A DNA stretch of 64,000 bases from assembly GCA_025359805.1 (NCBI GenBank), contig JANYDU010000030.1:22825-86824 (forward strand). The letters are read 5' to 3'. Shown here in pieces: positions 21,560 through 47,468 of this stretch. This DNA is from Bacteroidota bacterium (GTDB lineage: Bacteria > Bacteroidota > Bacteroidia > UKL13-3). Each line of letters begins with the position of its first letter. Within the stretch, counting starts at the first letter, position 1. A program made the translations under genes and the position numbers. The notes under the pieces are model-generated. The model did no database searches. It worked only from the letters and a program-made list of their open reading frames with translations, and was not told the DNA's origin.

Positions 21560-21581
21560 CCTATTTTCAACAAATAATTTT

Positions 21582-22745: not shown

Positions 22746-22750
22746 TGCTG

Positions 22751-23041: not shown

Positions 23042-23121
23042 TTTTTATGATTAAGTGTAAATCGCAAATATAACCAACGCCTTATGCTTCTTTTATTATA
23101 TTTGAAATAGAATAATAAACT

Positions 23122-24660: not shown

Positions 24661-26129
24661 GAACAGATTGGCTTAAAAAATATCCTTTCAGTACATTTTT
24701 AATTCCCGTATTTGTTTTTTTGCATGGAATAAATTACGCTTATGATTGGGTGAAAATAAATGATGTAATTTTGTTTTTTGGATACATCATATTAGCAACA
24801 ATCGGATTATTTTTACTCTCATTCATTTTATTCAAAGACACCATTAAAGCATCATTTTTCACTTCATTTTTGCTACTCATATTTTTTTATTTCGGGTATA
24901 TTCAAGATATGATTAGTGTTGCATCAGCAGTGTTTTTTCAATTAAAATATTATATACCATTTTTAGTATTAATTGCTGTAATTACATTTTATTTTATCAG
25001 AAAAATAAGGCGCGAACAATTAAGTAAACCGTTCTATTTTTTCAATATACTTTTCTGTATTTATGTATGTGTTGAAATTGTATTTTTAACTTTTACTATT
25101 TTTTCTGTACGTCAAGAACCATTAAAATTTTATGCTGATGAGAGTATAAATTTTACAGAAAAAATATCCCCGAAATCAAAACCAGATATTTATTTTTTGG
25201 TTTTTGATGAATATGCAAGTTCTCTATCACTCAAGCAAAATTTTGGCTTCGACAATAGTGATTTAGACACTTTTTTATTAAACAAAGGTTTTTTTATTGC
25301 TACACATTCAATGAGTAATTATGCAACAACTCCATTCTCTATTTCATCTACTCTAAACATTAATTATTTCAAAAATTTGCATAGAACAAAATATCCTGAA
25401 GATTTTCCAGCAGCAGAAAAATCAATGTACACCAATAAATTATTTTCATTTTTAAAAGATGAAGGATATAGCATTCATAATTTTTCGGTATTTGATTTTG
25501 AAGATGCCCCCTCACATCAAAAAAGCTTTGGAAGTGATTTGAGTATTAAAGTTATTACCCATAAATCGATGTTGCATGCTTTGGAAGTTGTTTATGAACA
25601 AATAAATAAAGATTATCCTAAAAAACAATTGGAGAAAACACTTCACGATTTTTCAACAACAATTAACAATAAAACTATTCAACCAAAGTTTATTTATCTA
25701 CATTTATTATTACCACATAATCCTTATGTTTTTAATGCTGATGGAAGTTTAAGAAGTGCATCTCAATACAATAAAAAAGCCGATGCTTACTCTATAAAAA
25801 GTTATCTCAATCAATTACAATTTTCAACCACAATTGTTAAACAAGTCGTCAATATCGTTTTATCATCACCCCAAAATAAATTAATTATTTTAGAAGGGGA
25901 TCATGGCTACAGATTAGTACCTATTGGAGTTGACTCTACATTTTACAAAAATTATGTGAGCACTAAAGAACATTTTAAAAACTTGAATGCTTATTATTTT
26001 TATGATAAAAACTATGTTTCTTTATCTGACTCTATTAGTCCTGTTAACTCATTTCGTGTTGTTTTAAATACCTATTTCAAAAAAGATATTCTATTGCTAA
26101 AAAACTCAGATAATAAAAATAAATATTGA
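24657..26129 (+). CDS. Polytopic membrane protein with an extracytoplasmic alkaline-phosphatase-superfamily (LtaS/EptA/sulfatase-like) domain
   Basis: About 5 N-terminal TM helices, then DIYFLVFDEYAS, SNYATTPFS, LLLPHNPY and EGDHGYR motifs. Confidence 0.65.
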   Translation: MRTDWLKKYPFSTFLIPVFVFLHGINYAYDWVKINDVILFFGYIILATIGLFLLSFILFKDTIKASFFTSFLLLIFFYFGYIQDMISVASAVFFQLKYYIPFLVLIAVITFYFIRKIRREQLSKPFYFFNILFCIYVCVEIVFLTFTIFSVRQEPLKFYADESINFTEKISPKSKPDIYFLVFDEYASSLSLKQNFGFDNSDLDTFLLNKGFFIATHSMSNYATTPFSISSTLNINYFKNLHRTKYPEDFPAAEKSMYTNKLFSFLKDEGYSIHNFSVFDFEDAPSHQKSFGSDLSIKVITHKSMLHALEVVYEQINKDYPKKQLEKTLHDFSTTINNKTIQPKFIYLHLLLPHNPYVFNADGSLRSASQYNKKADAYSIKSYLNQLQFSTTIVKQVVNIVLSSPQNKLIILEGDHGYRLVPIGVDSTFYKNYVSTKEHFKNLNAYYFYDKNYVSLSDSISPVNSFRVVLNTYFKKDILLLKNSDNKNKY

Positions 26130-28098: not shown

Positions 28099-29127
28099 TT
28101 AACGCAAACTGATATCAGCTGAATCTCTAAGCGTAGTAGGTGTATTTTTGGTGGATGCCAAATAGCCTTCGTTTGGCAAATTTCTTCCATAACTTTTCAC
28201 AATTACTTTATCATTTTTGAAAATATTTACAACAGTAAAACCAAAGAATTTTTCTTTTTCATCAGTAATCTTTTCAGTAAGTAAACTTCCTCCATTACCT
28301 GCAATAATTTGCCATGTTTTATTGGTGTGTGGTTGATGACGAAAATAAACATGATTATGCGCAGCAAGCATAGCTTCACAATTTGATTGTTCTAAAATAT
28401 TCCAAAACGAATCTCTATCCGAAATAAAATTATTCAACCCATCTTCATTTTGATATGGGAAAGCCGCTTTATGTCCGATAGCAAAAATATGTTTAGTATT
28501 TTTAGGCAATGCCATCAAATCTTTTTTAATCCATTTGTATGGAACCCTCCATTCTTTTCCAACCGGATCAGTATTTAAAATAATAAAATGCGTATTCAAA
28601 TAATCAAATGAATAGGTAAGCTTTTGCTGATTGGTTTGCAACTCGTCAGCTTCATTTATTTTAGGTCCATTTTTACCTGCAATATATTTTTGCATCACTC
28701 TAATCCAGGTTCTTTCGGCAGGTTCAGTTGAAGGTTTATTTTTCCCTCCCATCATTTCATGATTACCTGGAATTGTTACCAATTTTATTTTTGTGGTTGA
28801 TAATGTTGATTGCTCAAAAATAATTTTCCATGCGGTTAATTCTTTTGCTAATTGAATCGTATCAGTATAACCCATTACCAAATCCCCTGCAAAAAAAAGA
28901 TAGTGTGGTAGCGGTTTCATCAACGAAATATCTTCAAAGGTTTTTTTAAGTTGTTCTAAATTCGCTGTACTCGGATTGCTTTCATTTACATCGTGTTTAT
29001 CCACTCTATTACATCCAATCACTACAAATGAAAACAGTATTGTTTCCTCCTGCTTTTTTGTTGAAGAAATAATAAATGATGATGATAAAATTGAAATCAA
29101 ACAGAAAATTACAATGAGATTTTTCAT
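28099..29127 (-). CDS. Secreted calcineurin-like metallophosphoesterase with an atypical motif I
   Basis: Signal peptide, then GDLVMG, GNHEMM, GHKAAF and AHNHVY motifs. The position of motif I (GDxH) reads VVIGCNRVD. Confidence 0.7.
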   Translation of the reverse strand: MKNLIVIFCLISILSSSFIISSTKKQEETILFSFVVIGCNRVDKHDVNESNPSTANLEQLKKTFEDISLMKPLPHYLFFAGDLVMGYTDTIQLAKELTAWKIIFEQSTLSTTKIKLVTIPGNHEMMGGKNKPSTEPAERTWIRVMQKYIAGKNGPKINEADELQTNQQKLTYSFDYLNTHFIILNTDPVGKEWRVPYKWIKKDLMALPKNTKHIFAIGHKAAFPYQNEDGLNNFISDRDSFWNILEQSNCEAMLAAHNHVYFRHQPHTNKTWQIIAGNGGSLLTEKITDEKEKFFGFTVVNIFKNDKVIVKSYGRNLPNEGYLASTKNTPTTLRDSADISLR

Positions 29128-29151
29128 ACCAAAAAAACTTGAGTTGCTATA

Positions 29152-29189
29152 AACAAATACGGACTGCCAAATAGCAATCCGTATTTGTT
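29152..29189 (-). other. Perfect 12-bp stem-loop between the lipoprotein gene and the phosphoesterase gene
   Basis: AACAAATACGGA (29152-29163) pairs with TCCGTATTTGTT (29178-29189) over a 14-nt loop. There is no immediately adjacent T-run on the minus strand. Confidence 0.45.
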
Positions 29190-29204
29190 AGTTTAATTTT
29201 AAAA

Positions 29205-30599
29205 TTAGTGTTGATTTCCTTTTCCGTTTGATTGATAACAACCAATATCAATTCCAGGTTGAGTAATTTCTGTTGCGCCATAAATTGCATTAACAGGTAT
29301 TGGAGCAATTGCCGTAAAGCCTGTAAAGCCTTTTCCTATTGCAGGTGATGATGATTGTAAATGAAAATTAAAACCTGTTGCATAATTAATATCATTTAAA
29401 TGCGCAGTAGTTGAAGGCAAAGAGAAAGTAACAAACTTTGGATTATTTGCGCCTCTTAATGAAGCTGGCGGAGTATACACATCTCCTAACAAATATCCTG
29501 TTGGCAGAAATGATGGATTTGGAATATCAGTAGATTTGGGAATGGTAATATATCCTGTTGGATAAAATTGTGATGTTACATTATCAGAATCTCCATAGCG
29601 ATAATTATTTCCGTATTGCATATTAATAGTATCAGCCGCAGGGCTTCCAACAATTCTAAAAGAGAATTTACAGTTAACCATTAAATTATTATATGCAGTT
29701 CCTTTCGCTCCTTCTTCATAATTTAAACATCCACCACGCCCTGTTTGAACTTGTCTGTAACCACCATTAATATAAGTATTGTTAAACATATTTACATTGG
29801 TTTGAATTGGATTACCTCCTTTGTTGGAAGCCTTAGTTCCGTTAGTAGCTGTTCCCACAAAAAGATTATACGCCATGTCCCCAACTGTTCCACTTTTCGC
29901 ATTTAAACAATCACCACCAATATAACCTGCCTTTTCAAAAGTATTTCTCATGATATGAATTTTACCAGACTGAATACGAACAGCATCATCAATTGAGCCA
30001 TACAACCATGAATCTTCCATCACAAAGGAGCCGTTTGCATTTTGAAATAAGATGGTGTATGATTTGCTTCCTGCTTTGTTTCCATAAACAAGATACCCGT
30101 TATTGGTTCCAAAAGTAGCTCCTCCAAATTCAATATGTGTCCATTTTAAAACTAATAATGTACATGAAGTATCACAATTAATACCGCACCATTTTCCAGA
30201 GAATGCAGGGTCAACACTTGGATCTATTCCTGGCATATCAGTTTTAGTTATACCAGAAACGGAGATTTTATTTGGTTTATCTTTTGTACCTACAGAAATA
30301 AAAATTCCATACACAGCAATACTTGCCGATGCTGTTAAATTAACCGTAACACCTTCTTGTATTAAAACGGTATCACCTTTATTAATCACAACATCGCCAT
30401 CAATGGTGTATGTTTTGCCTGCCAACATGGTACCTTTAATACCACCATGTAATGGAGCGGCATCGCTAATTGGATTTGAAATTACTGGAGGAGGAACGGA
30501 AACTGTTGTAGTCTCATCTGAAGATGATTTTTTACAAGAGTTTAAGAATAGGAGGCCTGCAGATACTGCTACCAACCCTGTAATCATGATTTTGTTCAT
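29205..30599 (-). CDS. Lipoprotein, probably with a right-handed parallel beta-helix fold; partner of the upstream TonB-dependent receptor
   Basis: LFLNSCKKSSSDE lipobox with acidic residues after the Cys. Gly/Asn-rich turns recur (NNTYINGG, YNNLMVNC, MRNTFEKAG). The gene starts 29 nt after the receptor gene ends. Confidence 0.5.
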   Translation of the reverse strand: MNKIMITGLVAVSAGLLFLNSCKKSSSDETTTVSVPPPVISNPISDAAPLHGGIKGTMLAGKTYTIDGDVVINKGDTVLIQEGVTVNLTASASIAVYGIFISVGTKDKPNKISVSGITKTDMPGIDPSVDPAFSGKWCGINCDTSCTLLVLKWTHIEFGGATFGTNNGYLVYGNKAGSKSYTILFQNANGSFVMEDSWLYGSIDDAVRIQSGKIHIMRNTFEKAGYIGGDCLNAKSGTVGDMAYNLFVGTATNGTKASNKGGNPIQTNVNMFNNTYINGGYRQVQTGRGGCLNYEEGAKGTAYNNLMVNCKFSFRIVGSPAADTINMQYGNNYRYGDSDNVTSQFYPTGYITIPKSTDIPNPSFLPTGYLLGDVYTPPASLRGANNPKFVTFSLPSTTAHLNDINYATGFNFHLQSSSPAIGKGFTGFTAIAPIPVNAIYGATEITQPGIDIGCYQSNGKGNQH

Positions 30600-30628
30600 T
30601 TTGTTTAGTGTTTAATTTATGGTTTTTT

Positions 30629-33466
30629 TTATAATTTAAATCGTAATCCTAATAAATAAGTTTGTCCGTAATAATCTTTTTGAACAATAATACTATCATC
30701 ACTATCTTGATTTGGAAGTGCTGAAATTCCTGTTCTATAAATATTGTGTTGACGAATTTCAAGTATGTATGGAGTATTAAGAATATTACCAATTTTACAG
30801 TAAATAGAAATTCTTTTATAGAGTCGTTTCTCCATCGAAAAATCCATCGTTGTCATCGCTCTTTGCCAATAATCTTGGCCCGCATATTGTGAAATTAAAT
30901 TGATACGGCTTCCTGTGTAAACCAATGCCAACTGAACATCAAGCCCAAGTTTTGAATTCTTATATAGTAACGATGCATTTCCAATATGAGCTGATTGACC
31001 TTGCAATGGGCGGGTTTCCGAAACTTGATAATTTGTTATAGAACCCGATGGGTATGAATTACGTGTTACAAAAGTTCTATTAACTGTGATAGAAGAATTG
31101 GTATAAGTATAATTTACAGATGCTCCAAAATATCCAATGTATTTTGTAACCACAGCTTCAAAACCAAAGTTTACTGCATTGCCATAATTAGTTGGTTTAA
31201 GAATAGTGTTTGAAATTCCATTCTGAAAATAGGCATACTCTACAGGATTTATAATGTCTTTATAAAACACACCAAATAAAATTTGATCCAATCCTTTACC
31301 TAAAAACTCATATCTAATATCATAATTATTTGCCTGTGTATGCTTTAAAAGTGGATTACCTGATTCATCAAAATATTCTCCTGTTATGGTAAAAGGAATA
31401 ATCTCATAATAACTTGGTCGGCTAATCGAAGCATAGTATGATGCTCTGATATTTTGATTTTTAGTTAATGAATATTTTAAATGAAAGCTAGGTAAAATAT
31501 CCATGTATGTTTTACTTCCAGTTTTGCCTGCTTGAGTTATGGGAATTGCTGTTTCAAAACTTTGAGAAGTATTTTCTACCCTCACTCCGCCAATTAATTG
31601 AAGTTTAGTAATTGGGGTAAATTTTAATTGCCCGTAGTAGGCTGAAATATCTTCATTAAAAGTGTAATTATTGGCATCATTGGCAGAAGTATTAGAATAT
31701 AATTTCCACGTAATTTGATCTATACTATTATTATAATCATTGTTATTAAATTTAGTAGAGGCCACTGCTGAATTTAAAACTGTTTCGTCATAAAAATTAT
31801 CACGCGTTTTATGCCTATACATACCTCCTACTTTTATTTCAATATCCGTTTTAAAAATATGAGGAGTGTATGTTACATTAACATATCCCGATAAATCTTT
31901 ATCCGTATTATGCATCCAATAATGATGCGCTTTATTTATAGTTGCTGATGCCGCCCCTGTACTATCAGGTTTATATGATTGATATTGATTATCCCATTGA
32001 GTCCAATCAGGAGTTTGGCTACTTGCCACAGAGTATGCACCAATCCAATCTACTTTTAAATTAGATGAAATATCGTGATCGCCATGCAAGGTTCCATTAT
32101 AAATTGTTTGATTGGTTTGTTTAAATCTGTAATACCTTGTTACAATTGTTTGTGCCGGACCTGTTCTATGAATTTGCCAATCCGAATCAATAATAGTTCT
32201 CACAGAAGCTTCATTTAATTGAACCAATAAATTATAGAAACTTATTTTATTTTTTTTGTTGATTTGGTAATCAATTTTAGCATTTAAACCAATACGTGTT
32301 TGTTGTGTTGAATAATTTCTGCTTTGCACAAAATTCATTGCAGGGGCATTACCCGGAGCCGGATCAGCTTGCGTAGATGCATTTGGTAACACTACAAAAG
32401 AGTTAGTTGCTCTATAATTATTGGCATAAGAACCTGCAACTAAAACGCCCAATTTTTTATTAAAAAATCTGTTCCCTAATGTTACTCCAAACATTGAATT
32501 AGTAGGTGCAGTAATATCGGTATATTTCATACTCGAATTTGGAAAATCAGAACCTACAGGTTTATAATTTGGTCCGTTTATTTCAATAGGTGATTTAGGA
32601 TTGGACGATTTAAAATCATAACTATTATATCCTCTATCAAAAAGTAATTGACTATAACCTATTGCAACATTTGCATTCACTAATAATTTATCAGGTGCAT
32701 TTTTCATTACCATATTCATTGCACCACCAATTGCATCACCTTCCATACTTGGAGTTAAAGCTTTTATTACTTCTAAACGTTCTAATAAATCAGATGGGAA
32801 AATATCCATTGGAACATATCTGTTTTTAGGGTCAGGACTTGGAATTTTTATCCCATTTACTAAGGTATAATTATACCGTTTGTCCATTCCTCTAATAATG
32901 GCATATTGCCCATCACCTGTACTACTGCGCTCAATTGACACACCTGAAACACGTTGTAATACATTGGCAACAGTGAGATCTGGAGAGATTTGAATAGCTT
33001 TTGCTGAAACAGAATTAATAATGCTTGGCGCATTCATTTCAGTTTTTCGAGAAAATAAATCTGACTCTTTATTTATGGAAGAATCTCTAACACTTATTTC
33101 ATCTATTTCTGTTGAAGTTGATTCCATCAAAAATTTAATTTCAACTTCCTTATCACCCTGTTTTATTTCAACTTCCTTTTCTTGATTTTTATATCCAACA
33201 TAATTACAACCAACAATATATTTACCAGGAGTAATTCCTCTAATTTTAAATTCTCCTTCGAGATTCGTAGCTGTATTTAATTTTGTATTTTTTACATAAA
33301 TACTTGCACCTATAAGAATTTCTTTTGTTTTAGAATCACGTACTTTACCCTCCAATTTAACACCATTTGGAGTTCCGTCATTTGTGGATGCGAGAGCCAA
33401 TAATGAAAATGAAAAGAAGAATAAAAACAAACCGTAATGAATATGCTTAGTAAAATTTGATTGCAT
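30629..33466 (-). CDS. TonB-dependent receptor (CarboxypepD_reg-like + plug + 22-strand barrel), not SusC-type
   Basis: 945 aa. The N-terminus has GKVRDSKTKEILIGASIYV. Plug motifs are GVSIERSS...IRGMD. The C-terminal strand ends in LGLRFKL. Confidence 0.85.
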   Translation of the reverse strand: MQSNFTKHIHYGLFLFFFSFSLLALASTNDGTPNGVKLEGKVRDSKTKEILIGASIYVKNTKLNTATNLEGEFKIRGITPGKYIVGCNYVGYKNQEKEVEIKQGDKEVEIKFLMESTSTEIDEISVRDSSINKESDLFSRKTEMNAPSIINSVSAKAIQISPDLTVANVLQRVSGVSIERSSTGDGQYAIIRGMDKRYNYTLVNGIKIPSPDPKNRYVPMDIFPSDLLERLEVIKALTPSMEGDAIGGAMNMVMKNAPDKLLVNANVAIGYSQLLFDRGYNSYDFKSSNPKSPIEINGPNYKPVGSDFPNSSMKYTDITAPTNSMFGVTLGNRFFNKKLGVLVAGSYANNYRATNSFVVLPNASTQADPAPGNAPAMNFVQSRNYSTQQTRIGLNAKIDYQINKKNKISFYNLLVQLNEASVRTIIDSDWQIHRTGPAQTIVTRYYRFKQTNQTIYNGTLHGDHDISSNLKVDWIGAYSVASSQTPDWTQWDNQYQSYKPDSTGAASATINKAHHYWMHNTDKDLSGYVNVTYTPHIFKTDIEIKVGGMYRHKTRDNFYDETVLNSAVASTKFNNNDYNNSIDQITWKLYSNTSANDANNYTFNEDISAYYGQLKFTPITKLQLIGGVRVENTSQSFETAIPITQAGKTGSKTYMDILPSFHLKYSLTKNQNIRASYYASISRPSYYEIIPFTITGEYFDESGNPLLKHTQANNYDIRYEFLGKGLDQILFGVFYKDIINPVEYAYFQNGISNTILKPTNYGNAVNFGFEAVVTKYIGYFGASVNYTYTNSSITVNRTFVTRNSYPSGSITNYQVSETRPLQGQSAHIGNASLLYKNSKLGLDVQLALVYTGSRINLISQYAGQDYWQRAMTTMDFSMEKRLYKRISIYCKIGNILNTPYILEIRQHNIYRTGISALPNQDSDDSIIVQKDYYGQTYLLGLRFKL

Positions 33467-33671
33467 GTGTTACAAATAATTTTGGCGCAATTAGAGGTAT
33501 ATTTTTGAAGTAAATTTTATCTCCAAATGATTTAATCAAATGATAACTGCACGTTAAGAATTAAGTAATTTAAAAATGCCATTTACTTAACCTTTCATTC
33601 ACATTGAAATTCGTACATATTATTTTTATGTTAATTTAACCACAACCTATAAATAGCATAATTATAGACTG

Positions 33672-33679
33672 TAGGTTTG
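33672..33679 (+). promoter_or_regulatory. Candidate -7 box for the EEP gene
   Basis: TAGGTTTG matches TAnnTTTG and ends 21 nt before the ATG at 33701. No clear -33 TTG is present. Confidence 0.3.
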
Positions 33680-33700
33680 TTGATTAATTATTATTGAATA

Positions 33701-35086
33701 ATGAAAAAAATAAGCCTTATAGTGCTATTTGCTTTTACAATTTCTATTCATACAAAAGCTCAAAACGATACCTTAAAAGTAATGACCTATAATGTGTTGA
33801 ATTATGGAGATGAATGTCAGGGGAAAAATAAAGTGATGCGAAATTATCTTACAAAAATTATCAGTTTCACTCAACCTGATATTTTAGGATTGGTAAAAAT
33901 GCTTCCCATAAAAAGAACGCCTACAGATATTAATGGTTATTTACCAACAGATTTTTGTGATTCGATGGTTCAATACGTACTTAACCCGGCAGGAAATATT
34001 TCATACGGTTATTGCCAATATACCAATGAGGCCAGAGGTGGAGATATGAATGTTTTATTTTATAACAAAGAGAAATTAGCCAATATTTACACCAGAGTTT
34101 TAACGGTAAATGTAACTGATTTTGATTTGTATAAATTTTATTATAAAGATATAAATTTAGCTACAACACATGATACCACATTTTTATATATAGTATTATT
34201 TCATACACAATCTGGCTCTGATGCAACGGTAAGAAATATACAACTTACATCTACATATAATGCTATTAAAAATCGCTTTACATCATTACCCAATATGATT
34301 ATGATGGGCGATTTTAACTTACGTAGCAGCAGTGAAATTTGTTATAACCAATTAGTAAATTCAACGGACACTTCTTTTAAATTTAGCGACCCACCATTTG
34401 CCATTGACGGTACTTTTACTTATCCCGCAAATTGGCAAGGAAGTCCTGCTTACAGTTCATATATGACTACATCAACACGTATAGATTTAGTTCACCCTAA
34501 TGCTTGCGGAACAGATGGTGGAGGAAAAGATTGGTACGATCATATTTTGTTTTCGCCATGGATGGTAAAAGGAAATAATTACATGAGTTATGTTCCACAC
34601 TCATATCAAACAATTGGTAATGATGGAAAAAGATTTGGTGTTTCTGTAAACGACAGTTCAACAAATGGAAAAAACACTTCTGCACCAGCTGATATAATTA
34701 ATGCCCTATTTCAGCTATCAAATAAATATCCTGTAGTTTCAAAAATTTTAGTACGAAGTAACACTAATGGACTAAGCCCTGTCGATCCTCATGAAACTAC
34801 AACTGGTATTGCCGAATTATTAGTTGATGAAAGAAAAATTTCTATCTCAAATCCTACAGAAAATTTGTTGCATATTTTTACAAATGAACATCTCATCAAC
34901 AAAAATATTACCTTATTAATTACTGATTTAAGTGGAAAAGAAATTTTCAAAACATCAGTAAAAATTGAATCGCTAAATCAAACCGTTGATATTTCTAAAA
35001 TACATTCTGGATTTTTTATTGCGTCATTTATTTTTGATGATAACCAAACTTCAATCAGTAAAAAATTAATTAAAACTGAAGACTAA
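33701..35086 (+). CDS. Endonuclease/exonuclease/phosphatase (EEP) family protein with a T9SS type-A C-terminal sorting domain
   Basis: Signal peptide, then EEP motifs (VMTYNVLNYG, MMGDFN, YDHILFSP). The ~80-aa tail is ISNPTENLLHIF...ITDLSGKEIF...GFFIASF. Confidence 0.75.
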   Translation: MKKISLIVLFAFTISIHTKAQNDTLKVMTYNVLNYGDECQGKNKVMRNYLTKIISFTQPDILGLVKMLPIKRTPTDINGYLPTDFCDSMVQYVLNPAGNISYGYCQYTNEARGGDMNVLFYNKEKLANIYTRVLTVNVTDFDLYKFYYKDINLATTHDTTFLYIVLFHTQSGSDATVRNIQLTSTYNAIKNRFTSLPNMIMMGDFNLRSSSEICYNQLVNSTDTSFKFSDPPFAIDGTFTYPANWQGSPAYSSYMTTSTRIDLVHPNACGTDGGGKDWYDHILFSPWMVKGNNYMSYVPHSYQTIGNDGKRFGVSVNDSSTNGKNTSAPADIINALFQLSNKYPVVSKILVRSNTNGLSPVDPHETTTGIAELLVDERKISISNPTENLLHIFTNEHLINKNITLLITDLSGKEIFKTSVKIESLNQTVDISKIHSGFFIASFIFDDNQTSISKKLIKTED

Positions 35087-35212
35087 TTTTTGATGAAGCG
35101 TCTATCTTTATATTATCAAAAGTATTGATATTAAAATTTATAATTTAACACCTCAATAACATAATCATAATGTTACAATATTCATTTTGCTTGATAAAAA
35201 AATCAAACTAAA

Positions 35213-38194
35213 ATGAAAAAAATTCTATTCAACTTATTATCATTATCACTTGTTATACTTTCGGCAAATGAAAGTAAAGCACAACAAACTTTAATTCATT
35301 ATTGGCATTTTAATAATCTCGTTAATCCTATTCCTACAGGTGCTGTTAGTCCATCTACCTTACCTAGTATTAAAGCTGATTTTTCAACAATTGATACAAA
35401 TAAAGCAGTTGTTTCTTATCAGATTCTTGCAGGAACGGTTGGAAATGCAAAAACCTATTGGGATTTCGTTTCACCTGGTGATACAATTAACTCACGTTTA
35501 GGTGTTGTTGCTGGTTTAGGTTTTAGACCACGTAACCCAAGTGATAGTATGCAATTGGTATTTTATATTCCTTCTACAGGCTTTCAAAATTTAAATCTCA
35601 AATGGGAGGTGCAACGTTCAAGTGTTGGTGGTGGTGCTCCTCAGTTGATTTATGATTATAGTATTGATAGTGGTGCAACTTGGAAAAACTCAGGTCTATC
35701 CATAACAATTGATTCTACAGGATATGCCACTTGGAAAGCCATGTCAGTATCAATTAATAATGATGCGTTAGCATATGGAAACAGTAAACTGATTTTTAGA
35801 ATGCGATTTGCTGGACCAACCAATATAGGTACATCAGGTAACGTGCGATTTGATAATTTTACTGTAGAAGGAGATCCAATACCAACTGGTCCTAAATTTT
35901 ATAATATTGGTCAAATCAACACAACAAATCCAACAACTGGAGTTGCCGATTCATTAAACGGACATTATACCATTAGAGGTTTAGTGTATGGATTTAATCA
36001 AAGAACACCAAGTGCTGGTGCTACTTTTTTATTAAGAGATAATACTGGTGGTGTTACCGTATTTAATGTATCAAAAACTTTTGGTTACACGGTTACTGAA
36101 GGTGATAGTATTGTTGTTCCTGGAGTTGTTCAATCATTTAGAGGACTTATTGAATTTGCTCCTGATACCATTATTAAAATTGCATCGGGCAAAACCATTA
36201 AAACGCCAACTATTATAACTACATTAGGAGAAGCCAACGAAAATGATTTAGTTAAAATGAATAACTTAGTATTTTACACCACTCCATCTGGAGCAAATTG
36301 GCCAACAGCATCTACCAATATTTTATGTCATACTCAAAATTTAACGGATACAATTATTGTTCGTGTTTTGGCTGGAAGTGCTTTAGCAGGAACCGCATTA
36401 CCTTCATCAAGTTTATTTAATGTAACAGGGATGGTTCAACAATTTAGCACAAGCAGTGCTGCACCTTTTGCATTTAATGGATATGAAATTTTACCACGAA
36501 CAGCATCAGACATTTTATCGGGATTAGCTCCTCCTGATGCAGTAACAAATATTACTTCAACATCAAATTTAACAACACAAACTTTTAGTTGGACAAAACC
36601 TTCAACTTACATTGATGCAAGTATGACTACACTTGTTTTTATAAAATCAGGAAATGCAATTACACAAGGAACACCAAATAAAAATGCAATTTCATATACT
36701 GCAAATTCTGTTTTCGGATCGGGCACTTCATATCAAAATGATGTTGCTGCAAAATGTGTATTAAACTCCGATAACAGTTCAATTACAGTTACAGGTTTAA
36801 CTCAAGGAACTGCCTATTATGCTTTAGTATATGTAGCGAGAAATACCGATTCTGTTTATTCAACTGCGGCAATTGCTAATGCAACTACAACAGATAATTT
36901 ACCAATTTCGGTAACCGCTATTTCTGTTACTGGAACAACTGCAACATCAGCAACAATTAAATGGACTAAACCTGTAGGATATGATAATGCTGCACATTCA
37001 ACAATTGTTTTTGTAAAAGCTGATAATGTTATCACAGCAGGAACACCAACTAATACAGTTGCAAGCTATACTGCAAATACAACTTTTGGTTCGGGAGCTA
37101 TTTATCAAAATGATGCTGCTGCATTTTGTGTATTTAATAATGATACCAATACTGTTACCGTTTCAAATCTTATTCAAGGAAAAACATATAATGTAATTGT
37201 TTGGGTGGTGAGAGATGCCGATTCAAAATATGCAACTACACCAACAATAGGAAGCGGATCACCATTACCTCCTCCTCCACCTCCATCAAGCATTAAACTT
37301 ATTCACTACTGGAACTTCAATAATATAAATACAGGAACTGCGGGTGCTACCGTTGCAAACTCTTTCAAAGATTGGGCTGTTGAAGCAGACTACTCTTCAT
37401 TAGATACTGCAAAAGCAAAAATATACTACAGAACATATCCTGGAACTTCAGATGCATATATGACTTATTGGGATGCAGTAACTGGCGATACAACAAACCA
37501 ACGCATGAATGCAATTGCAGGAAACGGAATGAGAACACGTAACCCAAGCGATAGCATGCAAGTACTTTTTTATATTCCAACATCACATTACAAGAATATT
37601 AAAATCAGTTATGCTTGTCAAAAATCAAGTGTTGCTTCTGGTGCTTATCAACAAAATTATTCTTATAGTATTGATGGCGGGCAAAATTGGAAAACAACAG
37701 GTTTATCAAAAACTTCTGACTCAACTGCAGGTATTGCATATACACGTATGGGTGTTAATTTTACCACTGCCGATACCATGGCTTATAACAATCCAAACTT
37801 AGTTTTTAGAATTAGATTTGCTGTTGACCCAACAGGTACTATTGGTAATCCAGCGGGTTCATCAGGTAATAATCGTTTTGATAATTTTGCTGTGGAAGGA
37901 GATACTACAACTGTTTCTCCACTAACCGATCATACAGGAATTTTTGAAACTACGAATTCAATTTCTGAAGTTTATTTGTATCCTAATCCATCTACAAATA
38001 ATATTACCATTAGCACCAATTCAAGTGAAATAAAAACAATTGTGATTATGAATATTGCAGGACAAGAATTATACAATTTAAAACAAGAAGGTAAAGATAT
38101 TACTGTTGATGTTTCGAATTTTAGAAGCGGTATTTATTTTGTAAATGTGATTGAAGGAAATAAAAATTACAGAACTAAATTCATTAAAAATTAA
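35213..38194 (+). CDS. Modular T9SS cargo/surface protein, 993 aa: HYW-domain, OB-fold-like module, 2 FN3-like repeats, poly-Pro, HYW-domain, T9SS CTD
   Basis: Signal peptide. Internal duplication: residues ~27-221 resemble ~696-897. The P7 linker is at 37270-37290. The tail is LYPNPSTNNITI...IMNIAGQELY...GIYFVNV. Confidence 0.8.
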   Translation: MKKILFNLLSLSLVILSANESKAQQTLIHYWHFNNLVNPIPTGAVSPSTLPSIKADFSTIDTNKAVVSYQILAGTVGNAKTYWDFVSPGDTINSRLGVVAGLGFRPRNPSDSMQLVFYIPSTGFQNLNLKWEVQRSSVGGGAPQLIYDYSIDSGATWKNSGLSITIDSTGYATWKAMSVSINNDALAYGNSKLIFRMRFAGPTNIGTSGNVRFDNFTVEGDPIPTGPKFYNIGQINTTNPTTGVADSLNGHYTIRGLVYGFNQRTPSAGATFLLRDNTGGVTVFNVSKTFGYTVTEGDSIVVPGVVQSFRGLIEFAPDTIIKIASGKTIKTPTIITTLGEANENDLVKMNNLVFYTTPSGANWPTASTNILCHTQNLTDTIIVRVLAGSALAGTALPSSSLFNVTGMVQQFSTSSAAPFAFNGYEILPRTASDILSGLAPPDAVTNITSTSNLTTQTFSWTKPSTYIDASMTTLVFIKSGNAITQGTPNKNAISYTANSVFGSGTSYQNDVAAKCVLNSDNSSITVTGLTQGTAYYALVYVARNTDSVYSTAAIANATTTDNLPISVTAISVTGTTATSATIKWTKPVGYDNAAHSTIVFVKADNVITAGTPTNTVASYTANTTFGSGAIYQNDAAAFCVFNNDTNTVTVSNLIQGKTYNVIVWVVRDADSKYATTPTIGSGSPLPPPPPPSSIKLIHYWNFNNINTGTAGATVANSFKDWAVEADYSSLDTAKAKIYYRTYPGTSDAYMTYWDAVTGDTTNQRMNAIAGNGMRTRNPSDSMQVLFYIPTSHYKNIKISYACQKSSVASGAYQQNYSYSIDGGQNWKTTGLSKTSDSTAGIAYTRMGVNFTTADTMAYNNPNLVFRIRFAVDPTGTIGNPAGSSGNNRFDNFAVEGDTTTVSPLTDHTGIFETTNSISEVYLYPNPSTNNITISTNSSEIKTIVIMNIAGQELYNLKQEGKDITVDVSNFRSGIYFVNVIEGNKNYRTKFIKN
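35291..35875 (+). repeat. HYW-domain copy 1 (LIHYWHFNN ... RPRNPSDSMQ ... RFDNFTVEGD)
   Basis: Roughly two-thirds aa identity (by eye) to copy 3. It shares the exact 24-nt string cgtaacccaagtgatagtatgcaa with copy 3. Confidence 0.8.
36530..37260 (+). repeat. Two FN3-like coding repeats (period 372 nt) of the family expanded at 60836-63876
   Basis: The W codons of the WTKP motif are at 36590 and 36962. Both copies carry YQNDxxAxC. Confidence 0.8.
37298..37903 (+). repeat. HYW-domain copy 2 (LIHYWNFNN ... RTRNPSDSMQ ... RFDNFAVEGD)
   Basis: More diverged than copies 1 and 3, but colinear with them. Confidence 0.75.
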
Positions 38195-38216
38195 TTTTAG
38201 TTTTATCATAAAACAG

Positions 38217-38250
38217 AAGCAGGTTATCCAAATGGATAGCCTGCTTTTTT
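38217..38250 (+). terminator. Rho-independent terminator after the 993-aa gene
   Basis: AGCAGGTTATCC-AAAT-GGATAGCCTGCT (one wobble pair) followed by TTTTTT. Confidence 0.7.
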
Positions 38251-38349
38251 GTGATTAGACTTTTAAATAACACGAATTGATTTATATTATTTACTTAATA
38301 TGAAAATAACATTTACCTAACAGCACAAATTTAGTTTCGCAAAAAAAAT

Positions 38350-39588
38350 ATGAAAAAATTTCTTCAAATAGCATTCTTAAGTTTTTGCTTTAGCTTATCA
38401 ATTAATCAATCAAATGCACAACAAAAACTTATTCATTATTGGCACTTTAATAATTTAGTAAATTACACAACAGTAGCTGTTAATCCATCAACACTACCAG
38501 CTATAAAAGCAAATTACTCCACATTGGATACAAATAAAGCAGTTGTTGCTTATAAAATTTTAGCAGGAACTGCTGGTAACGTATTAACGTATTGGGACAA
38601 TGTGACCCCTGGCGACACTGTAAATGTACGATTAGGACAGCCTGCTGGCTTAGGCTACAGACCTCGTAACCCAAGTGATAGTATGCAACTGATGTTTTAT
38701 ATTCCAACAACAGGGTATCAAAATATCACCATCAAATTCGAAACACAAAAATCAAGTGCAAGTGCTGGTGGAGCAATTGACTCATTTGATTACAGCATAG
38801 ATAGTGGCATCACGTGGAGAAATTCTGGCGTATCCTTATTGTATGCCTCGAACGTTACAACTTGGACAGCTACTCCGGGTATTTCAGTAAATATAAATAG
38901 CGATCCCTTGGCCAATAATAATAATAAATTAGTTTTCAGAATTAGATTTGGTGGTGGCGGAACAACTGGAACTACAGGCAATGTTAGGTTTGATAATATT
39001 ACTATTGAAGGCGATACTCTTATAGCAACTCCTGTTACATTATTAAACTTCAGTGCAAAAATTATTGCCCATTCAAAAGTTAATTTAACGTGGCAAACTA
39101 CTTCCGAAATAAACAATGATTATTTTATAATTGAAAAAAGTATTGATGAGCAAAATTGGATCGAAACAGAAAAAATAAAAGGTGCGGGAAATAGCAATTC
39201 AGTTAAAACATATCAAACAAATGATGAAGTTGAGAATGGAATTGGAGTAATTTATTACCGACTAAAACAAGTTGATTTTAATGGCGAGGTAACCACTTTT
39301 AACCCAATAGTGATTAACCTAAACAATAATAATTTACCAACTATTATTTCAGTAGAAAATCCTATCCAAAATAATACTTGTAACATTAAACTATTTTCCG
39401 AAAATCAAACTCAATTAACTGTTACAATTAGAAATGTTTTAGGAAATGTTATTCAGCAAACATCCTACGTTACCAAAGGAAATACACTACTTAATTTAGA
39501 TGTTGCCTCTATAAATAATGGAATTTATTTTTTAGAAATAAAAGATGGGAACAATATTGTATCGAGCAAAAAAATCCTTAAACAATAA
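38350..39588 (+). CDS. T9SS cargo protein, 412 aa: HYW-domain, Ig/FN3-like domain, T9SS CTD
   Basis: Signal peptide, then HYW-domain copy 3. A LLNFSAK...LTWQT...YRLKQVDFNG beta-sandwich follows. The tail is NPIQNNTCNIKL...GIYFLEI. Confidence 0.8.
   Translation: MKKFLQIAFLSFCFSLSINQSNAQQKLIHYWHFNNLVNYTTVAVNPSTLPAIKANYSTLDTNKAVVAYKILAGTAGNVLTYWDNVTPGDTVNVRLGQPAGLGYRPRNPSDSMQLMFYIPTTGYQNITIKFETQKSSASAGGAIDSFDYSIDSGITWRNSGVSLLYASNVTTWTATPGISVNINSDPLANNNNKLVFRIRFGGGGTTGTTGNVRFDNITIEGDTLIATPVTLLNFSAKIIAHSKVNLTWQTTSEINNDYFIIEKSIDEQNWIETEKIKGAGNSNSVKTYQTNDEVENGIGVIYYRLKQVDFNGEVTTFNPIVINLNNNNLPTIISVENPIQNNTCNIKLFSENQTQLTVTIRNVLGNVIQQTSYVTKGNTLLNLDVASINNGIYFLEIKDGNNIVSSKKILKQ
38428..39015 (+). repeat. 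HYW-domain copy 3 (LIHYWHFNN ... RPRNPSDSMQ ... RFDNITIEGD)
   Basis: See copy 1. Confidence 0.8.
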
Positions 39589-39607: not shown

Positions 39608-39640
39608 GAAAGGCTTTGGCAAATTGTGAAGGCCTTTTTT
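39608..39640. terminator. Weak hairpin between convergent genes
   Basis: AAAGGC (39609-39614) pairs with GCCTTT (39632-39637), followed by a T-run. The loop is long (17 nt). Confidence 0.3.
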
Positions 39641-40400
39641 ATTTGCCTGAAATACTTTTTAGTTTCTCTATAAACACTTCTTTTTTTCTTCTTGAAACTT
39701 CAACAGAACTATCATCAGCCATAATAATTACACCACCTTCTCCTTTTATATAACGTTTAATATGTGCAAGGTTGATAAGATGAGAATGGTGTACCCGAAT
39801 AAAATTATGCGCGTTTAATAACTCTTCAAAATCTTTTAAAGTTTTAGAAACTAAAATGGGTTTACTATTGATTAAATAAAATTTAGTGTAATTATCATCC
39901 GACTCACAACGAATAATATCCTCTGTGTTAACAAAAATTAAACCATCAAGCGTTGGCAATGCCAATTTGCTTTTAGTGGTTTGAATGTTTCTAATATTTT
40001 GAAGTAAAATATCGAGTTGTGAATTATCTTTTCCTTTACTTCTTAATTTAATAATTACCTTCTCAATGGCAGATTCTAAATCATCTGCATCAATTGGTTT
40101 CAATAAATAATCCACTGCACTAAACTTAAAAGCTTTAATAGCATATTGATCGTAGGCTGTTGTAAATATTACTTCAAAATCTTTTTCCTTGATGGATGCC
40201 AGCATATCAAAACCATTTCTATGTGGCATTTCAATATCTAAAAAAACTAAATCTGGTTTCAAATTTTTGATAAGTAATTCTCCTGACTCTGCATCTTCAG
40301 CAAGTCCTATTAGTTCGATTTTATCATCAAACTCTTCTAACATTTTTTTGAGGGCATTTCGTCCTCTCAATTCATCTTCAATAATTATTGTACGTATCAT
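39639..40400 (-). CDS. LytTR-family response regulator (REC + LytTR), paralog of 12686..13447
   Basis: DLVFLDIEMP REC motif and a CESDDNYTKFYL...FIRVHHSHLINL LytTR domain. Same length (253 aa) as the other copy. Confidence 0.85.
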   Translation of the reverse strand: MIRTIIIEDELRGRNALKKMLEEFDDKIELIGLAEDAESGELLIKNLKPDLVFLDIEMPHRNGFDMLASIKEKDFEVIFTTAYDQYAIKAFKFSAVDYLLKPIDADDLESAIEKVIIKLRSKGKDNSQLDILLQNIRNIQTTKSKLALPTLDGLIFVNTEDIIRCESDDNYTKFYLINSKPILVSKTLKDFEELLNAHNFIRVHHSHLINLAHIKRYIKGEGGVIIMADDSSVEVSRRKKEVFIEKLKSISGK

Positions 40401-43400
40401 ATAGTAAGTTGAAATGGAATGGTGATAATAACTTTTGTACCAGCACTATTGCCTTCATCATCATACAAATCTATTATTTCTGCTGATGCCTGTGCTTTAT
40501 TTAATTGATTTAAAATAGCTAATCTTTCATTAGTTACTTTTAATCCTTTTGAAATATGTGAATGCGCTTGTTTGTTTCTAATTTCTCTTGATTTTTTTCT
40601 GCCTATTCCATTATCAATTACCTCACAAACCAATAATTCTTTATTTTGTAAATGAAATTTCACAGTGAGTTCTCTATCATTTTCTTTATGCATTAAGCCA
40701 TGCCAAATAGCATTTTCAATAAATGGTTGAATGAGCATAGTTGGAATTTCTATCTTATAAATATTTACATCCGGAAAAATATTTAATGAATAATTAAACC
40801 CATTATTAAATCTTAATGATTCAATTTCGATATAGAGTTTTAAGAAATCAATTTTTTTGGCAAGTGTAATGGTTGACGTTTCAGAATTATCTAAAATTTG
40901 CCTGATGAGTTTAGCAAACTTGCTCAAATATTTTGACGCTTCTTTAATATTATTATTTAAAATAAAGTCTTGAATAGAGTTTAAAGCATTAAAAATAAAG
41001 TGAGGATTCATCTGCGCGCGCAAAGCTTTTAACTCTAATTCGCTCAATTGTTTATTAATTGATGTTCGATGTTGTTCTTGTTTTCTGATAAATGAAATAC
41101 GCAAATAAACAGCAACCCAAACCACACAAACAATGATTAAAAAAATGATTAAAACAAACCACCATCTCTGCCAAAAAGGGGGAGTAATAATAATTTGAAT
41201 AGCGTTTATTTCATCACTCCAAATACCATCATTATTGGTTCCTTTAATTTTTAAAACATAATTACCAGGGCGCAAACTATTATAGCGAGCAATATTTGAT
41301 GTACCTGAATACACCCAATTATAATCATACCCTTCGAGCTTATATGCATATATATTTTTTTCTGGTGCGGTGTATTCAAGAGCCGAAAAATTAAAGGTTA
41401 AGTAATTTTGGAAATAAGAAAGTGTAATGAGTTTGATAGCAAGTAATGAATCAATATTTAATTCGTTATCAAACACTTTAAATGAAGTAAGTCTTATTAA
41501 TGGCTTTGTTTTATTCTCTTTAATATCAATCGGATTAAAAAAATTAAACCCCTCAACACCTCCAAATAATAAATATCCATTTGAGGTTATATAATTAGCC
41601 CCTCCATTAAATTCATTACTTTGTAAACCATCCAATACAGAATAATTTTTAAATGTTTGTGCCTCTATGGAATACTTTGAAATACCAAAATTTGTGCTTA
41701 TCCAAAGGTTGTTTTGATTATCTTTTTCGATACCATAAACCAAATCATTTGCCAAGCCATTTGATATATTAAAATTTTTATAGGTTTCATTATGCGTATC
41801 AAACCTAATAAAACCATTGCCCATTGTGCCTATCCAAAGTATTCCTGTACTGTCTAAAATCATTGTACTCATGGTATAATCATTCTCTCCATTATTCTCA
41901 GTACGAAAAAAAACTTTTGTATGATGCCCATCCCATTTAATAATTTGGCTTGAAAAAGCAATCCAAATATTTCCATTTTTATCCTCCACCAACGACCTAA
42001 TATTTTTTATTTTATCAACTGAAATAGATAAAGGAACAACTCTGTTTTTTTTCTCATCAAACTCAAACAAACCATTTCCTCCTCCTAATAAAACTTTTCC
42101 ATTATGGCAAATTAAAATGGTTTTAATAAAGGTCTCAGAGTTGATATTTGAATAGGGTATTTCAGTAAATTTATTTGTTGAGGTATTAAATAATTCTAAG
42201 CCTAATGCAGTTCCTAATAATAAATTTTCACCCAATTGATCAATACAAAATATCACATCCGATGATCTATTTTTATTGTTATTAGGATATCGTATAAATT
42301 TATTTTCAGCAGTAATCCATTTATTTAATCCTTCGCCATCAGTTCCTATCCAGATATTTTTTTCTGAATCTTCAAAAAATGAAAGTATAAAATTACTGCT
42401 TACCGAATTTTTATTAAACGGATTATTTTTATACGTATTAAAACTTGATTTATTAAAATTTACTTTGTTAAGCCCTCCTCCATAAGTTCCTATCCAAATA
42501 ATTCCAGAATGATCCTCACAAAAAGCTATCACATAATTTTTGCTAATAGAATTGGGAACTATGGGATTCAATTCATAAAATTCGGGAGTGGCATTTTCGT
42601 TTTCAAAAAACAATAACCCATTGTTAGTTCCCACCCAAATTCTTTTTGTTTTATCAACCAATATTGCAGTTACTATATTTAAAGTATGATGAATTTTTGA
42701 TGATACTAATTTGCTATAGTCTTTTATTATTTTAGTTTTACTGTTGATAGAAATAAGTTCATTTGATTCGGATGCTGCCCAAATTGATTTTGAATTTTCA
42801 TCATATTGAACAAAAGAAAATTTGTATGCAGAATTTAAATAAGCAGCTAATTTATTTGTTAAAACATCAATTTTTTTTAACTCATAATTTGATGCAAAAA
42901 CTACTTCTTGCGCATTTATTTCAGTAATATCCGAGATGTTGGAAATGGGAATAGAACTAAAGTTTTTATATGTTGTATTAAACTTCCAAATTTCTTTTTG
43001 AGTGCATAACCAAATTTCTTTTCGACACCTGCTTTTAAAAAAACATGTAATACGACATTCTTTAAAATCAGGAATTTTAAACTCTTCAAACTGTTCTGTT
43101 ATTTTATTAAAACAACTAATGGATTTGGAATGAACAATCCATAAATTTTTCTGTTCATCTTCAAGAATTCCTTTTACAAAATTATAGGGCAATGATGTTT
43201 TTATAGCACTTGAATGCCTGTAAATTTTAAAACTTTTACCATCATATTTATTCAAACCATCTTCTGTACCTACCCAAATAAATCCATCTGCATCTTGCAA
43301 AATACATTTTGCCGAATTTTGAGAAAGCCCATTCTTAATATCTAAATGTTCAAAGTCAATTTGTGAATTGGCTTGAGCACATAAATAAAAAAATATGAAA

Positions 43401-47466: not shown

Positions 47467-47468
47467 GG

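Follow-up and report, generated by a model that had tools for sequence, protein, structure and literature searches.

The locus described here encodes an outer-membrane transporter, a companion lipoprotein and a divergent set of secreted proteins in a Bacteroidota bacterium (UKL13-3; GCA_025359805.1, contig JANYDU010000030.1). The whole stretch analysed, referred to below as the window, comprises 64,000 nt (contig positions 22,825-86,824) with a G+C content of about 31%. The locus under study lies at 28,099-39,588 of the window, and coordinates are window-based. Mapping of open reading frames (ORFs) places on the minus strand the gene for a 945-aa transporter (30629-33466), followed after 29 nt on the same strand by that for a 464-aa lipoprotein and, after a further gap of 77 nt, by that for a 342-aa metallophosphoesterase. 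The plus strand carries ORFs of 461, 993 and 412 aa, the first of which is divergent from the transporter gene and begins 234 bp from its start. The gene order and spacings agree with those of a first-pass annotation of this DNA, each ORF lying where that annotation had placed it. The features are as follows.

28099..29127, minus strand: signal-peptide metallophosphoesterase, 342 aa, purple-acid-phosphatase (PAP)-like (PF00149)
29152..29189, minus strand: perfect 17-bp hairpin between the lipoprotein and phosphoesterase genes (folding)
29205..30599, minus strand: surface lipoprotein, 464 aa, lipobox LNSC (no Pfam model)
30629..33466, minus strand: non-SusC TonB-dependent transporter, 945 aa (CarbopepD_reg_2, Plug and barrel)
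33526..33591, minus strand: 11-bp-phased direct-repeat array in the divergent promoter region (phased view)
33701..35086, plus strand: EEP-fold protein exported by the type IX secretion system (T9SS), 461 aa (EEP domain ~33761-34765; sorting domain ~34850-35074)
35213..38194, plus strand: T9SS-exported multidomain protein, 993 aa (two HYWHFNN domains, OB/DUF5689, two FN3-like repeats, sorting domain)
38215..38248, plus strand: terminator-like hairpin after the 993-aa gene, 15-bp stem followed by a T run
38350..39588, plus strand: T9SS-exported HYWHFNN protein, 412 aa (Pfam and NCBIfam sorting-domain matches)
39639-43459, next to the locus: LytTR response regulator and Reg_prop/Y_Y_Y histidine kinase (Pfam)

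All three plus-strand proteins have T9SS type-A C-terminal domains above threshold, as the first-pass annotation had proposed. The respective scores were 29.3, 49.4 and 37.9 bits for PF18962 (Por_Secre_tail; cutoff 27) and 24.3, 52.5 and 35.5 bits for TIGR04183 (cutoff 23).

Conservation of the module and its phosphorus-related neighbours

A genome scan gave 52 loci, mostly from Chitinophagaceae, Mucilaginibacter, Puia, Pedobacter, Parasediminibacterium and unclassified Bacteroidota. Close relatives have syntenic five-gene loci, in which the transporter and lipoprotein genes are divergent from those for the EEP-fold protein, the 993-aa protein and a protein of ~615 aa. A four-gene module (transporter, lipoprotein, EEP-fold protein and HYWHFNN protein) is syntenic in metagenomic relatives, Taibaiella soli, Chitinophaga niastensis, Mucilaginibacter, Puia, Parasediminibacterium and others. 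In T. soli and C. niastensis the transporter, lipoprotein and EEP-fold genes follow in that order on one strand, and in T. soli a 309-aa T9SS protein with the same N-terminal (HYWHFNN) domain comes next. The transporter (>900 aa) and lipoprotein genes are adjacent and co-directional in 17 loci, including the window. By tblastn and clustering, 21 loci encode the lipoprotein; the number is the same for HYWHFNN proteins, whose genes adjoin the EEP-fold gene. The EEP-fold gene itself adjoins the transporter-lipoprotein pair in 18 other loci from several families, usually co-directional and immediately downstream. Only the clade with lysine substitutions in the active site, described below, does so; its canonical relatives do not. 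This synteny bears out the conserved capture and outer-membrane uptake module envisaged at first pass. The expected co-occurrence across Bacteroidota was found for the transporter, lipoprotein and EEP-fold genes, whereas the window's own metallophosphoesterase family proved variable (four loci).

The genes that accompany the module recur in several combinations. A Metallophos family of ~390 aa occurs in eight loci and the PAP-like family of the window in four; together they account for 11 of the 21 loci that have the lipoprotein. Eight loci have an alternative operon for an SdiA-regulated/Phytase-like propeller, a Porin_O_P-like barrel, a HYWHFNN lipoprotein and an EEP-fold protein; PF07396 matched one of the two porin members scanned (35.7 bits). 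At locus L011 the porin operon and the transporter module are fused, the porin operon lying directly upstream. Two loci encode a 448-aa Phytase-like protein (133 bits), five a YncE-like propeller and L003 a PHO4 transporter, and the window has a PhoA-type alkaline phosphatase (PF00245, 235 bits) 7 kb from the locus. By Pfam there was no glycoside hydrolase, lyase or SusD at the window locus, and none among the recurrent neighbour families, in which NCBIfam detected nothing further. Judged from these gene families, the company kept by the module points to phosphorus or phosphoester acquisition. The first-pass annotation had suggested eDNA (extracellular DNA) or organophosphate as the substrate. 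The recurrent neighbours favour the phosphorus side of that proposal, and the eDNA side derives from an OB/DUF5689 module confined to one clade.

Two further stretches of the window contain genes of related kinds. At 46378-48584 (minus strand) the PhoA-type phosphatase gene lies 2 nt downstream of dprA on the same strand, 8 kb from the DUF5689 module; dprA encodes a DNA-processing protein used in natural transformation. Upstream of the locus, at 20513-26129 (plus strand), are genes for a DUF4421 protein, a PLD-like member of the phospholipase D family (PF13091, 129 bits) and a sulfatase-family protein, together with a 456-aa ORF without a Pfam match. Of these, the PLD-like and sulfatase-family enzymes are members of phosphoester and sulfoester hydrolase families. 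None of the genes in this stretch had a homolog among the ORFs of the related loci (blastp E<1e-8).

Components of the module

The 461-aa protein scored 20.2 bits against PF03372, under the gathering cutoff of 24.5, and PDB sequence searches with the protein and with its family profile returned no EEP structure and nothing outside the secretion tail. An AlphaFold (AF2) model built from 38 homologs reached a pLDDT of 87. Foldseek aligned this model with 4ruw, Tdp2, Nocturnin and DNase I, with E values of 1e-10 to 1e-14 and target-normalised TM scores of 0.65-0.75. A four-layer alpha/beta EEP fold is thus confirmed at the level of the predicted structure.

The catalytic Glu/His residues of canonical EEP enzymes are E39/H252 in DNase I, E96/H309 in APE1 and E34/H259 in ExoIII. 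In the EEP alignment, K66 (33896-33898) of the window protein stands at the Mg-binding Glu of the LQE motif, where the family has an invariant Lys. At the SDH motif the sequence is S-[N/D]-K, K342 (34724-34726) standing in for the catalytic His, and K276 replaces an Asp. Both K66 and K342 are present in 162 of the 170 relatives aligned with the window protein, and D276K in 158 of those 162; R278W, L343Y and Q257T are further clade-defining changes. The phosphate-contacting residues N31, H168, D204, N206 and D280 are kept. Six more distant relatives of the same architecture (L044-L049; 28-31% identical) keep E...SDH. Canonical relatives scored 26.7-41.9 bits against PF03372, four of the five scanned passing the cutoff, and the Lys-substituted clade gave E<0.01 in eight of 38 members. 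The family as a whole has at least 502 homologs. Two intermediates (L041 1450-2766 and L043 9986-11047) have Lys at the Glu position together with a retained His (S-E-H), Asn276 and Arg278, which suggests from the alignment that the change from E to K came first.

Since the positions of E66 and H342 are both occupied by Lys, the canonical Mg-dependent mechanism would not be usable by the EEP-fold protein, and a role as a classical Mg-dependent nuclease is unlikely. The pocket should be markedly more cationic than the canonical one, and the most likely role of the protein is to bind phosphate-rich ligands, or to cleave them independently of metal. For the 'EEP-family enzyme' of the first pass, structure prediction and Foldseek confirm the fold; the Pfam score is below cutoff and Lys replaces the catalytic Glu and His.

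The other two secreted proteins share a beta-sandwich that we call the HYWHFNN domain. In the 993-aa protein a first copy (35279-35890) is followed by a tandem OB/DUF5689 module (~35888-36532) and two FN3-like repeats; the C-terminal half contains a second copy (37298-37948) and the sorting domain (~37967-38191). The 412-aa protein has a single HYWHFNN domain (38416-39027) and a sorting domain at its C terminus, with an Ig/FN3-like domain between them. The three copies are 46-63% identical to one another, the 412-aa copy and the first 993-aa copy being 63% identical. Small HYWHFNN proteins are either lipoproteins (with Cys-Val-Lys-Asp-Arg after the lipobox) or T9SS-tailed, and the domain is therefore always extracellular. 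PF00932 (LTD) was absent from all six locus proteins, even at E<=10 on isolated segments; in distant homologs elsewhere, HYWHFNN relatives combine LTD, OB and Calx-beta. Another T9SS-tailed protein in the window (296 aa; 50470-51360, plus strand) has no other Pfam domain and, by tblastn, no HYWHFNN domain.

When residues ~226-440 of the 993-aa protein were scanned alone, DUF5689 scored 29.8 bits (cutoff 28.6; E = 6.7e-7) and PF01336 matched weakly. No identical protein was on record; the orthologs of this protein are syntenic and 49-64% identical, and among 11 orthologous OB segments DUF5689 was detected in ten (best E = 2.9e-12) and PF01336 in five. Searched against PDB sequences, the OB family profile gave sub-threshold matches only, with STN1, archaeal RPA and RPA32, all OB folds that bind single-stranded DNA, at the top. 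Foldseek of a low-confidence model matched the segment after the N-terminal domain to the OB folds STN1 (6w6w_C, 4joi_B) and YgiW (1nnx), and the N-terminal domain itself to the jelly rolls of CBM22, CBM15, a reelin subrepeat and botulinum Hc. From the profile matches the module is assigned as a genuine OB domain, as the OB-like pattern picked out at first pass had implied; its most specific family is DUF5689. To this family belong DdbD, which in Bacteroides DNA-utilisation loci is proposed to be a DNA-binding lid on the transporter, and a Riemerella natural-transformation protein (PMC12478041). Because of this tandem module, nucleic acid is the leading candidate ligand within this clade; the specific eDNA reading has no other source.

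Turning to the outer membrane, Pfam finds an N-terminal CarbopepD_reg_2 domain, a plug and a barrel in the transporter. Its top NCBIfam match was TIGR01782 (TonB-Xanth-Caul; 260 bits, under the model cutoff of 310). The SusC/RagA model TIGR04056 gave 58.8 bits, far under its cutoff of 368.25, and no SusD-family Pfam match was found at the locus, in keeping with the earlier description of a non-SusC receptor without SusD or a PusCD-like pair. Transporter orthologs of 41-75% identity adjoin the lipoprotein gene in related loci.

The lipoprotein had no Pfam match and, whether searched as protein or family profile, no PDB sequence match. There are at least 1436 homologs, the top 120 of them all at least 53% identical, and the family comprises 5209 representatives at E<=1e-3 (50% clustering). 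The search of the representative library returned unnamed proteins only, with uninformative cluster names, and a plasmid tblastn gave no match. PF13229 matched one of 30 homologs (1.2e-5), precomputed PF28492/PF13229 matches exist for a few, one UniRef entry is named 'Right handed beta helix region', and hhalign against a Beta_helix_4 protein gave a probability of 67%. Of the 'beta-helix-like lipoprotein' proposed at first pass, the lipoprotein part holds (lipobox LNSC), and the beta-helix part draws weak support from one PF13229 match in 30 and the hhalign result. The lipoprotein is a putative lid or substrate-binding partner of the transporter. In the representative library, giant proteins of 1,400-7,700 aa contain 5-14 tandem matches to a segment of ~130 residues (~40-170) of the lipoprotein, and the same segment aligns with the N-terminal part of a 1341-aa T9SS Beta_helix_4 protein in L001. 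Judged from these alignments, the N-terminal segment behaves as a mobile repeat module.

The metallophosphoesterase matched PF00149 at 35.5 bits (E = 1.8e-8) and has a signal peptide, in line with the secreted metallophosphoesterase annotated earlier; PDB sequences gave weak PAP matches only. Homologs of 37-48% identity are encoded in L020, L028 and L037, the last of which has the transporter-lipoprotein-metallophosphoesterase order of the window. The first metal-ligand motif (residues ~36-40) reads GCN in the window and L020 and GDD in L028 and L037. From its distribution this gene is classed as a variable accessory of the module. The strong stem-loop reported in the 77-nt gap proved to be a perfect 17-bp stem of -24.8 kcal/mol (shuffled mean -9.8; z = -6.1), which is likely to be a terminator or attenuator, or an mRNA-stabilising element.

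In the closest relatives (L001 3095-3808 and L003 3180-3920) the phosphoesterase slot is occupied by a protein of ~237 aa with two CxxCH-like motifs and weak cytochrome-c matches (PSCyt1, E = 0.0035). It is followed by a protein of 316-405 aa, whose cluster member in L010 has a T9SS tail. By gene content, the slot downstream of the lipoprotein gene is thus a variable one.

Promoter repeats and candidate regulators

The intergenic region between the divergent operons contains, from -125 to -60 relative to the transporter start, the units GTTAAG, (GGCATT), ATTACT, CTTAAC, GTTATC and ATTAAA in that order. A pattern devised once the array was known matched only its four TTA[AC] units (33532-33590) in the whole window, with 0.06 matches expected; the first, strict three- and four-unit patterns had no window match. 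Since the matching pattern is post hoc, the statistical weight of the repeats lies in a cross-locus analysis of spacing and its control. In the regions preceding 17 transporter genes, GTTACC and GTTAAG were enriched hexamers (z about 4.9 and 4.6). Pairs of TTA[AC] in these regions numbered 18 at a spacing of 11 bp (11 loci) and 22 at 22 bp (13 loci), compared with 1-8 at other spacings, and the same 11- and 22-bp peaks were seen upstream of the phytase-like/porin operons. A control set of 81 intergenic regions (18.8 kb) gave 18 pairs at 11 bp, 6 at 22 bp and 3-17 at others, that is, a weak bump at 11 and none at 22. Direct repeats phased at 11 bp are the known architecture of OmpR/PhoB-family sites. 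Moreover, the repeat core is the reverse complement of TTTAACA, the DAP-seq motif of Riemerella PhoP (PMC9603813). The array is therefore regarded, from its sequence pattern, as a candidate binding site for a winged-helix regulator of the OmpR/PhoB family.

A PorY-family kinase (NF052314, 406-450 bits; cutoff 350) and an OmpR-type regulator flank the module in L005 (13673-15603), L026 (14851-16787) and L036 (2215-4170). PorY is a regulator of type IX secretion genes. The OmpR-type regulator of these three loci is a candidate binder of the 11-bp-phased repeats. We considered and rejected a PhoBR identity for these two-component systems, as the kinases are of the PorY family and the regulators fall under the PhoB cutoffs; since the adjacent systems are not PhoBR, the repeats are named 'winged-helix-type' and not 'Pho boxes'.

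The LytTR two-component system next to the locus, which had been counted as part of it at first pass, is absent from all 48 related loci. The LytTR/Y_Y_Y system, an acetyl-CoA synthetase and other flanking genes were likewise dismissed as parts, never co-occurring with the module in related loci. A second Reg_prop/Y_Y_Y/His_kinase sensor (983 aa) with a LytTR regulator (253 aa), at 12686-16395 on the minus strand, has the same architecture as the 39639-43459 pair. Two such pairs within 30 kb suggest a paralogous expansion unrelated to the uptake module.

Weighing the function of the locus

Taken together, the gene content and its conservation incline us, with some reserve, to the reading that the locus is a phosphorus-scavenging outer-membrane uptake module resembling PUS III/IV and the ElpS/TonB-receptor systems. 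The transporter and the ~50-kDa surface lipoprotein would form an import gate, and the three T9SS-exported proteins would capture a polyanionic phosphorus compound outside the cell. The cationic EEP-fold protein may bind phosphate-rich ligands or cleave them without metal, and the HYWHFNN proteins may act as capture factors, one of them carrying the OB/DUF5689 module with its suggested nucleic acid ligand. Imported material would be dephosphorylated in the periplasm by the PAP-like metallophosphoesterase. A winged-helix response regulator acting on the 11-bp-phased repeats probably drives expression from the divergent promoter that the two sides share. Within this scheme we infer the phosphate regulation, the ligand, a binding rather than catalytic function for the EEP-fold protein, the lipoprotein as a lid and the homology to ElpS, FI and FII.

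Phosphate depletion of Flavobacterium johnsoniae strongly induces two clusters, PUSIII (Fjoh_3851-3859) and PUSIV (the phoBR operon, Fjoh_0541-0549) (Lidbury et al. 2021, PMC8115612). PUSIII encodes the transporter Fjoh_3857, the lipoprotein FI (Fjoh_3856), which at 45 kDa is the most abundant exoprotein, and two T9SS-domain proteins without Pfam assignment; PUSIV encodes an OprP porin, a transporter and the lipoprotein FII, which has a pectin-lyase fold (PMC8115612). FI and FII are related to ElpS of Caulobacter, and a glycan-binding role has been raised for them (Lidbury et al., PMC8115612). As in the window, both clusters have a non-SusC transporter (Plug, CarbopepD_reg_2) immediately followed by a hypothetical lipoprotein of ~45-50 kDa, with phosphoesterases nearby; the weak pectin-lyase or polygalacturonase resemblance of FI and FII may extend to the window lipoprotein. 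T9SS-domain proteins without Pfam assignment adjoin PUSIII as they do the window pair, and the OprP-type porin in the PUSIV cluster has its counterpart in the related loci. The differences are that the PUSIII transporter is larger (121.5 kDa) and tied to FecR and an ECF sigma factor and that PUSIV is tied to phoBR, whereas the window has neither. Moreover, the published description of PUSIII and PUSIV contains no EEP-fold partner, Lys substitutions, HYWHFNN or DUF5689 module.

ElpS is a ~50-kDa phosphate-starvation lipoprotein encoded beside the receptor Cc0171 in Caulobacter crescentus (PMC2996285). BT4055/BT4056 is listed as a transporter-lid pair with homologous pairs in 621 genera, and BT4056 is 40% identical to Fjoh_0546 (Price et al., bioRxiv 10.1101/2023.03.17.533168). 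Like the window pair, both consist of a ~50-kDa surface lipoprotein without a Pfam family beside a TonB-dependent receptor. The ElpS/BT4056 family shares with the window family a very wide distribution and probably a link to phosphate starvation, and the top NCBIfam match of the window transporter is to the Xanthomonas/Caulobacter subfamily. Unlike the window proteins, ElpS is exported by the type II route and encoded beside gsp genes, with no secreted EEP-fold or HYWHFNN partners described. The layouts of PUSIII/PUSIV, ElpS/Cc0171 and BT4055/BT4056 match that of the window by architecture, so that the earlier view that the locus fits no described type no longer holds; membership of the window locus in the PUSIII/IV-ElpS type would follow by analogy.

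The systems that capture DNA or glycans offer further comparisons. ExeM of Shewanella and Xds of Vibrio are nucleases with LTD, OB and EEP domains in one chain. The window shares with them an exported OB-fold module and an EEP-fold domain and differs in having no LTD, in placing OB and EEP on separate proteins, in the E to K and H to K changes of the EEP active site and in T9SS export. The ExeM/Xds-like nuclease suggested at first pass is not supported, with Lys at the metal-binding Glu and the catalytic His in the window as in the 162 relatives counted above, and with no LTD. The ddbABCDEF loci of gut Bacteroidales serve DNA utilisation, and a transporter/DUF5689 pair serves transformation in Riemerella (PMC12478041, PMC8459023). 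The ddb loci resemble the window in a logic like that of polysaccharide utilisation loci (PULs) without SusD, namely a transporter, extracellular binding or degrading proteins and a periplasmic enzyme, and in the presence of DUF5689 tandem OB folds. However, their DUF5689 protein is a lid lipoprotein beside the transporter, whereas in the window the module lies inside the T9SS-secreted 993-aa protein; the window lipoprotein has no DUF5689 match, and the lid position is taken by this unrelated lipoprotein. The ddb loci also encode three experimentally active nucleases, whereas the only nuclease-like protein of the window is without the canonical catalytic Glu and His; from its family, the periplasmic Metallophos protein could be a phosphodiesterase. 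Finally, SusCD PULs and PusCD systems have surface capture, TonB-dependent import and periplasmic processing in common with the window, whose transporter is outside the SusC family and which has no SusD-family protein.

Several points weigh against a phosphorus-scavenging module as we have drawn it. The window phosphoesterase has Cys for the usual first metal-ligand Asp, and its family stands alongside the module in four loci only. The support for a beta-helix in the lipoprotein is weak, the AlphaFold model of residues 1-445 of the 993-aa protein is of low confidence (pLDDT 63.5), and the OB/DUF5689 protein is confined to the close clade of the window. The two-component systems beside the module in three loci are of the PorY family, and the phased repeats may therefore serve a regulator that does not respond to phosphate; phosphate control is suggested indirectly by the phosphorus-related neighbours and the repeats. 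The putative homology to ElpS, Fjoh_0546, Fjoh_3856 and BT4056 is likewise judged from architecture.

The alternatives were weighed against the same evidence. The locus might harvest eDNA by means of an active secreted EEP nuclease and a DNA-holding OB protein, in effect a split ExeM/Xds, with import of oligonucleotides and finishing by the metallophosphoesterase in the manner of ddbABCDEF. The match of the OB segment to the family of the DdbD lid and the Riemerella competence protein (PMC12478041) speaks for this, as do its Foldseek and PDB-profile matches to the single-stranded-DNA-binding folds of STN1 and RPA, the confirmed EEP fold, whose best structural matches include Tdp2 and DNase I, and the occurrence of HYWHFNN-domain homologs in proteins that also carry LTD and OB. 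However, Lys replaces both the Mg-binding Glu and the catalytic His in practically every member of the EEP clade while relatives keep E...SDH, no LTD domain is found at the locus, the partner lipoprotein of the transporter is not DUF5689, the DUF5689 protein is absent from most module-bearing loci, and the genes that recur nearby encode phytase-like proteins and a phosphate porin instead of nucleases. We regard eDNA harvesting as unlikely on this balance. Uptake of glycans or plant cell wall material is more doubtful again. Here a pectin-like polymer would be bound or cleaved by the lipoprotein, with the HYWHFNN domains serving as carbohydrate-binding modules (CBMs) and the adjoining Y_Y_Y/Reg_prop kinase sensing the oligosaccharide, as in PUL hybrid systems. 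Such a function could draw on the weak beta-helix or pectin-lyase-like signals in lipoprotein homologs, the local Foldseek matches of HYWHFNN to CBM22, CBM15 and a porphyran-binding CBM, and the glycan-binding role raised for FI and FII (PMC8115612). Yet these CBM-like matches are weak (E ~5e-3) and come from a low-confidence model, the Y_Y_Y/LytTR system is never conserved with the module, and glycoside hydrolases, lyases and SusD are missing from the window locus and from its recurrent neighbour families, which are phosphorus genes instead.

It is very improbable that the transporter-lipoprotein pair is the only functional unit, with the secreted proteins, phosphoesterase and regulators adjacent by chance. 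Variability or absence of the phosphoesterase, acetyl-CoA synthetase and LytTR genes in related loci would fit such an arrangement, as would the strong hairpin between the lipoprotein and phosphoesterase genes and the divergent transcription of the secreted-protein genes. It is countered by the EEP-fold gene, which adjoins the pair in 18 other loci of several families, by the restriction of this association to the Lys-substituted clade and by the co-occurrence of HYWHFNN proteins in 21 loci.

Within the preferred phosphorus-scavenging reading, we put forward a more specific and decidedly speculative idea: the Lys-substituted clade (E66K, D276K, H342K, R278W; at least 500 homologs) may represent a new functional class of the EEP superfamily, a secreted metal-independent binder or metal-free hydrolase of phosphate-rich ligands ('phosphophore'). 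Helped by the HYWHFNN domain, it would hand its cargo to an ElpS-type transporter-lid gate or to an OprO/P-like porin. If true, this would provide the first mechanistic role for the type of cluster whose lipoprotein outnumbers all other exoproteins in Flavobacterium starved of phosphate. As far as could be found, there is no earlier description of the Lys-substituted EEP clade, of the HYWHFNN domain or of the phased repeats in the promoter.

Pairs of a transporter and an ElpS/FI-type lipoprotein occur in hundreds of genera, and in Flavobacterium they include the most strongly phosphate-starvation-induced and most abundant exoproteins. To these pairs the locus and its relatives add three conserved partners, namely a Lys-substituted EEP-fold protein, a new extracellular beta-sandwich domain and, in one clade, a DUF5689 module of DNA-binding type; they also add a shared phased-repeat promoter element. 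Overall, they provide testable hypotheses on the substrate of phosphorus-starvation transporters and the way it is captured, and on phosphorus cycling by soil and freshwater Bacteroidota.

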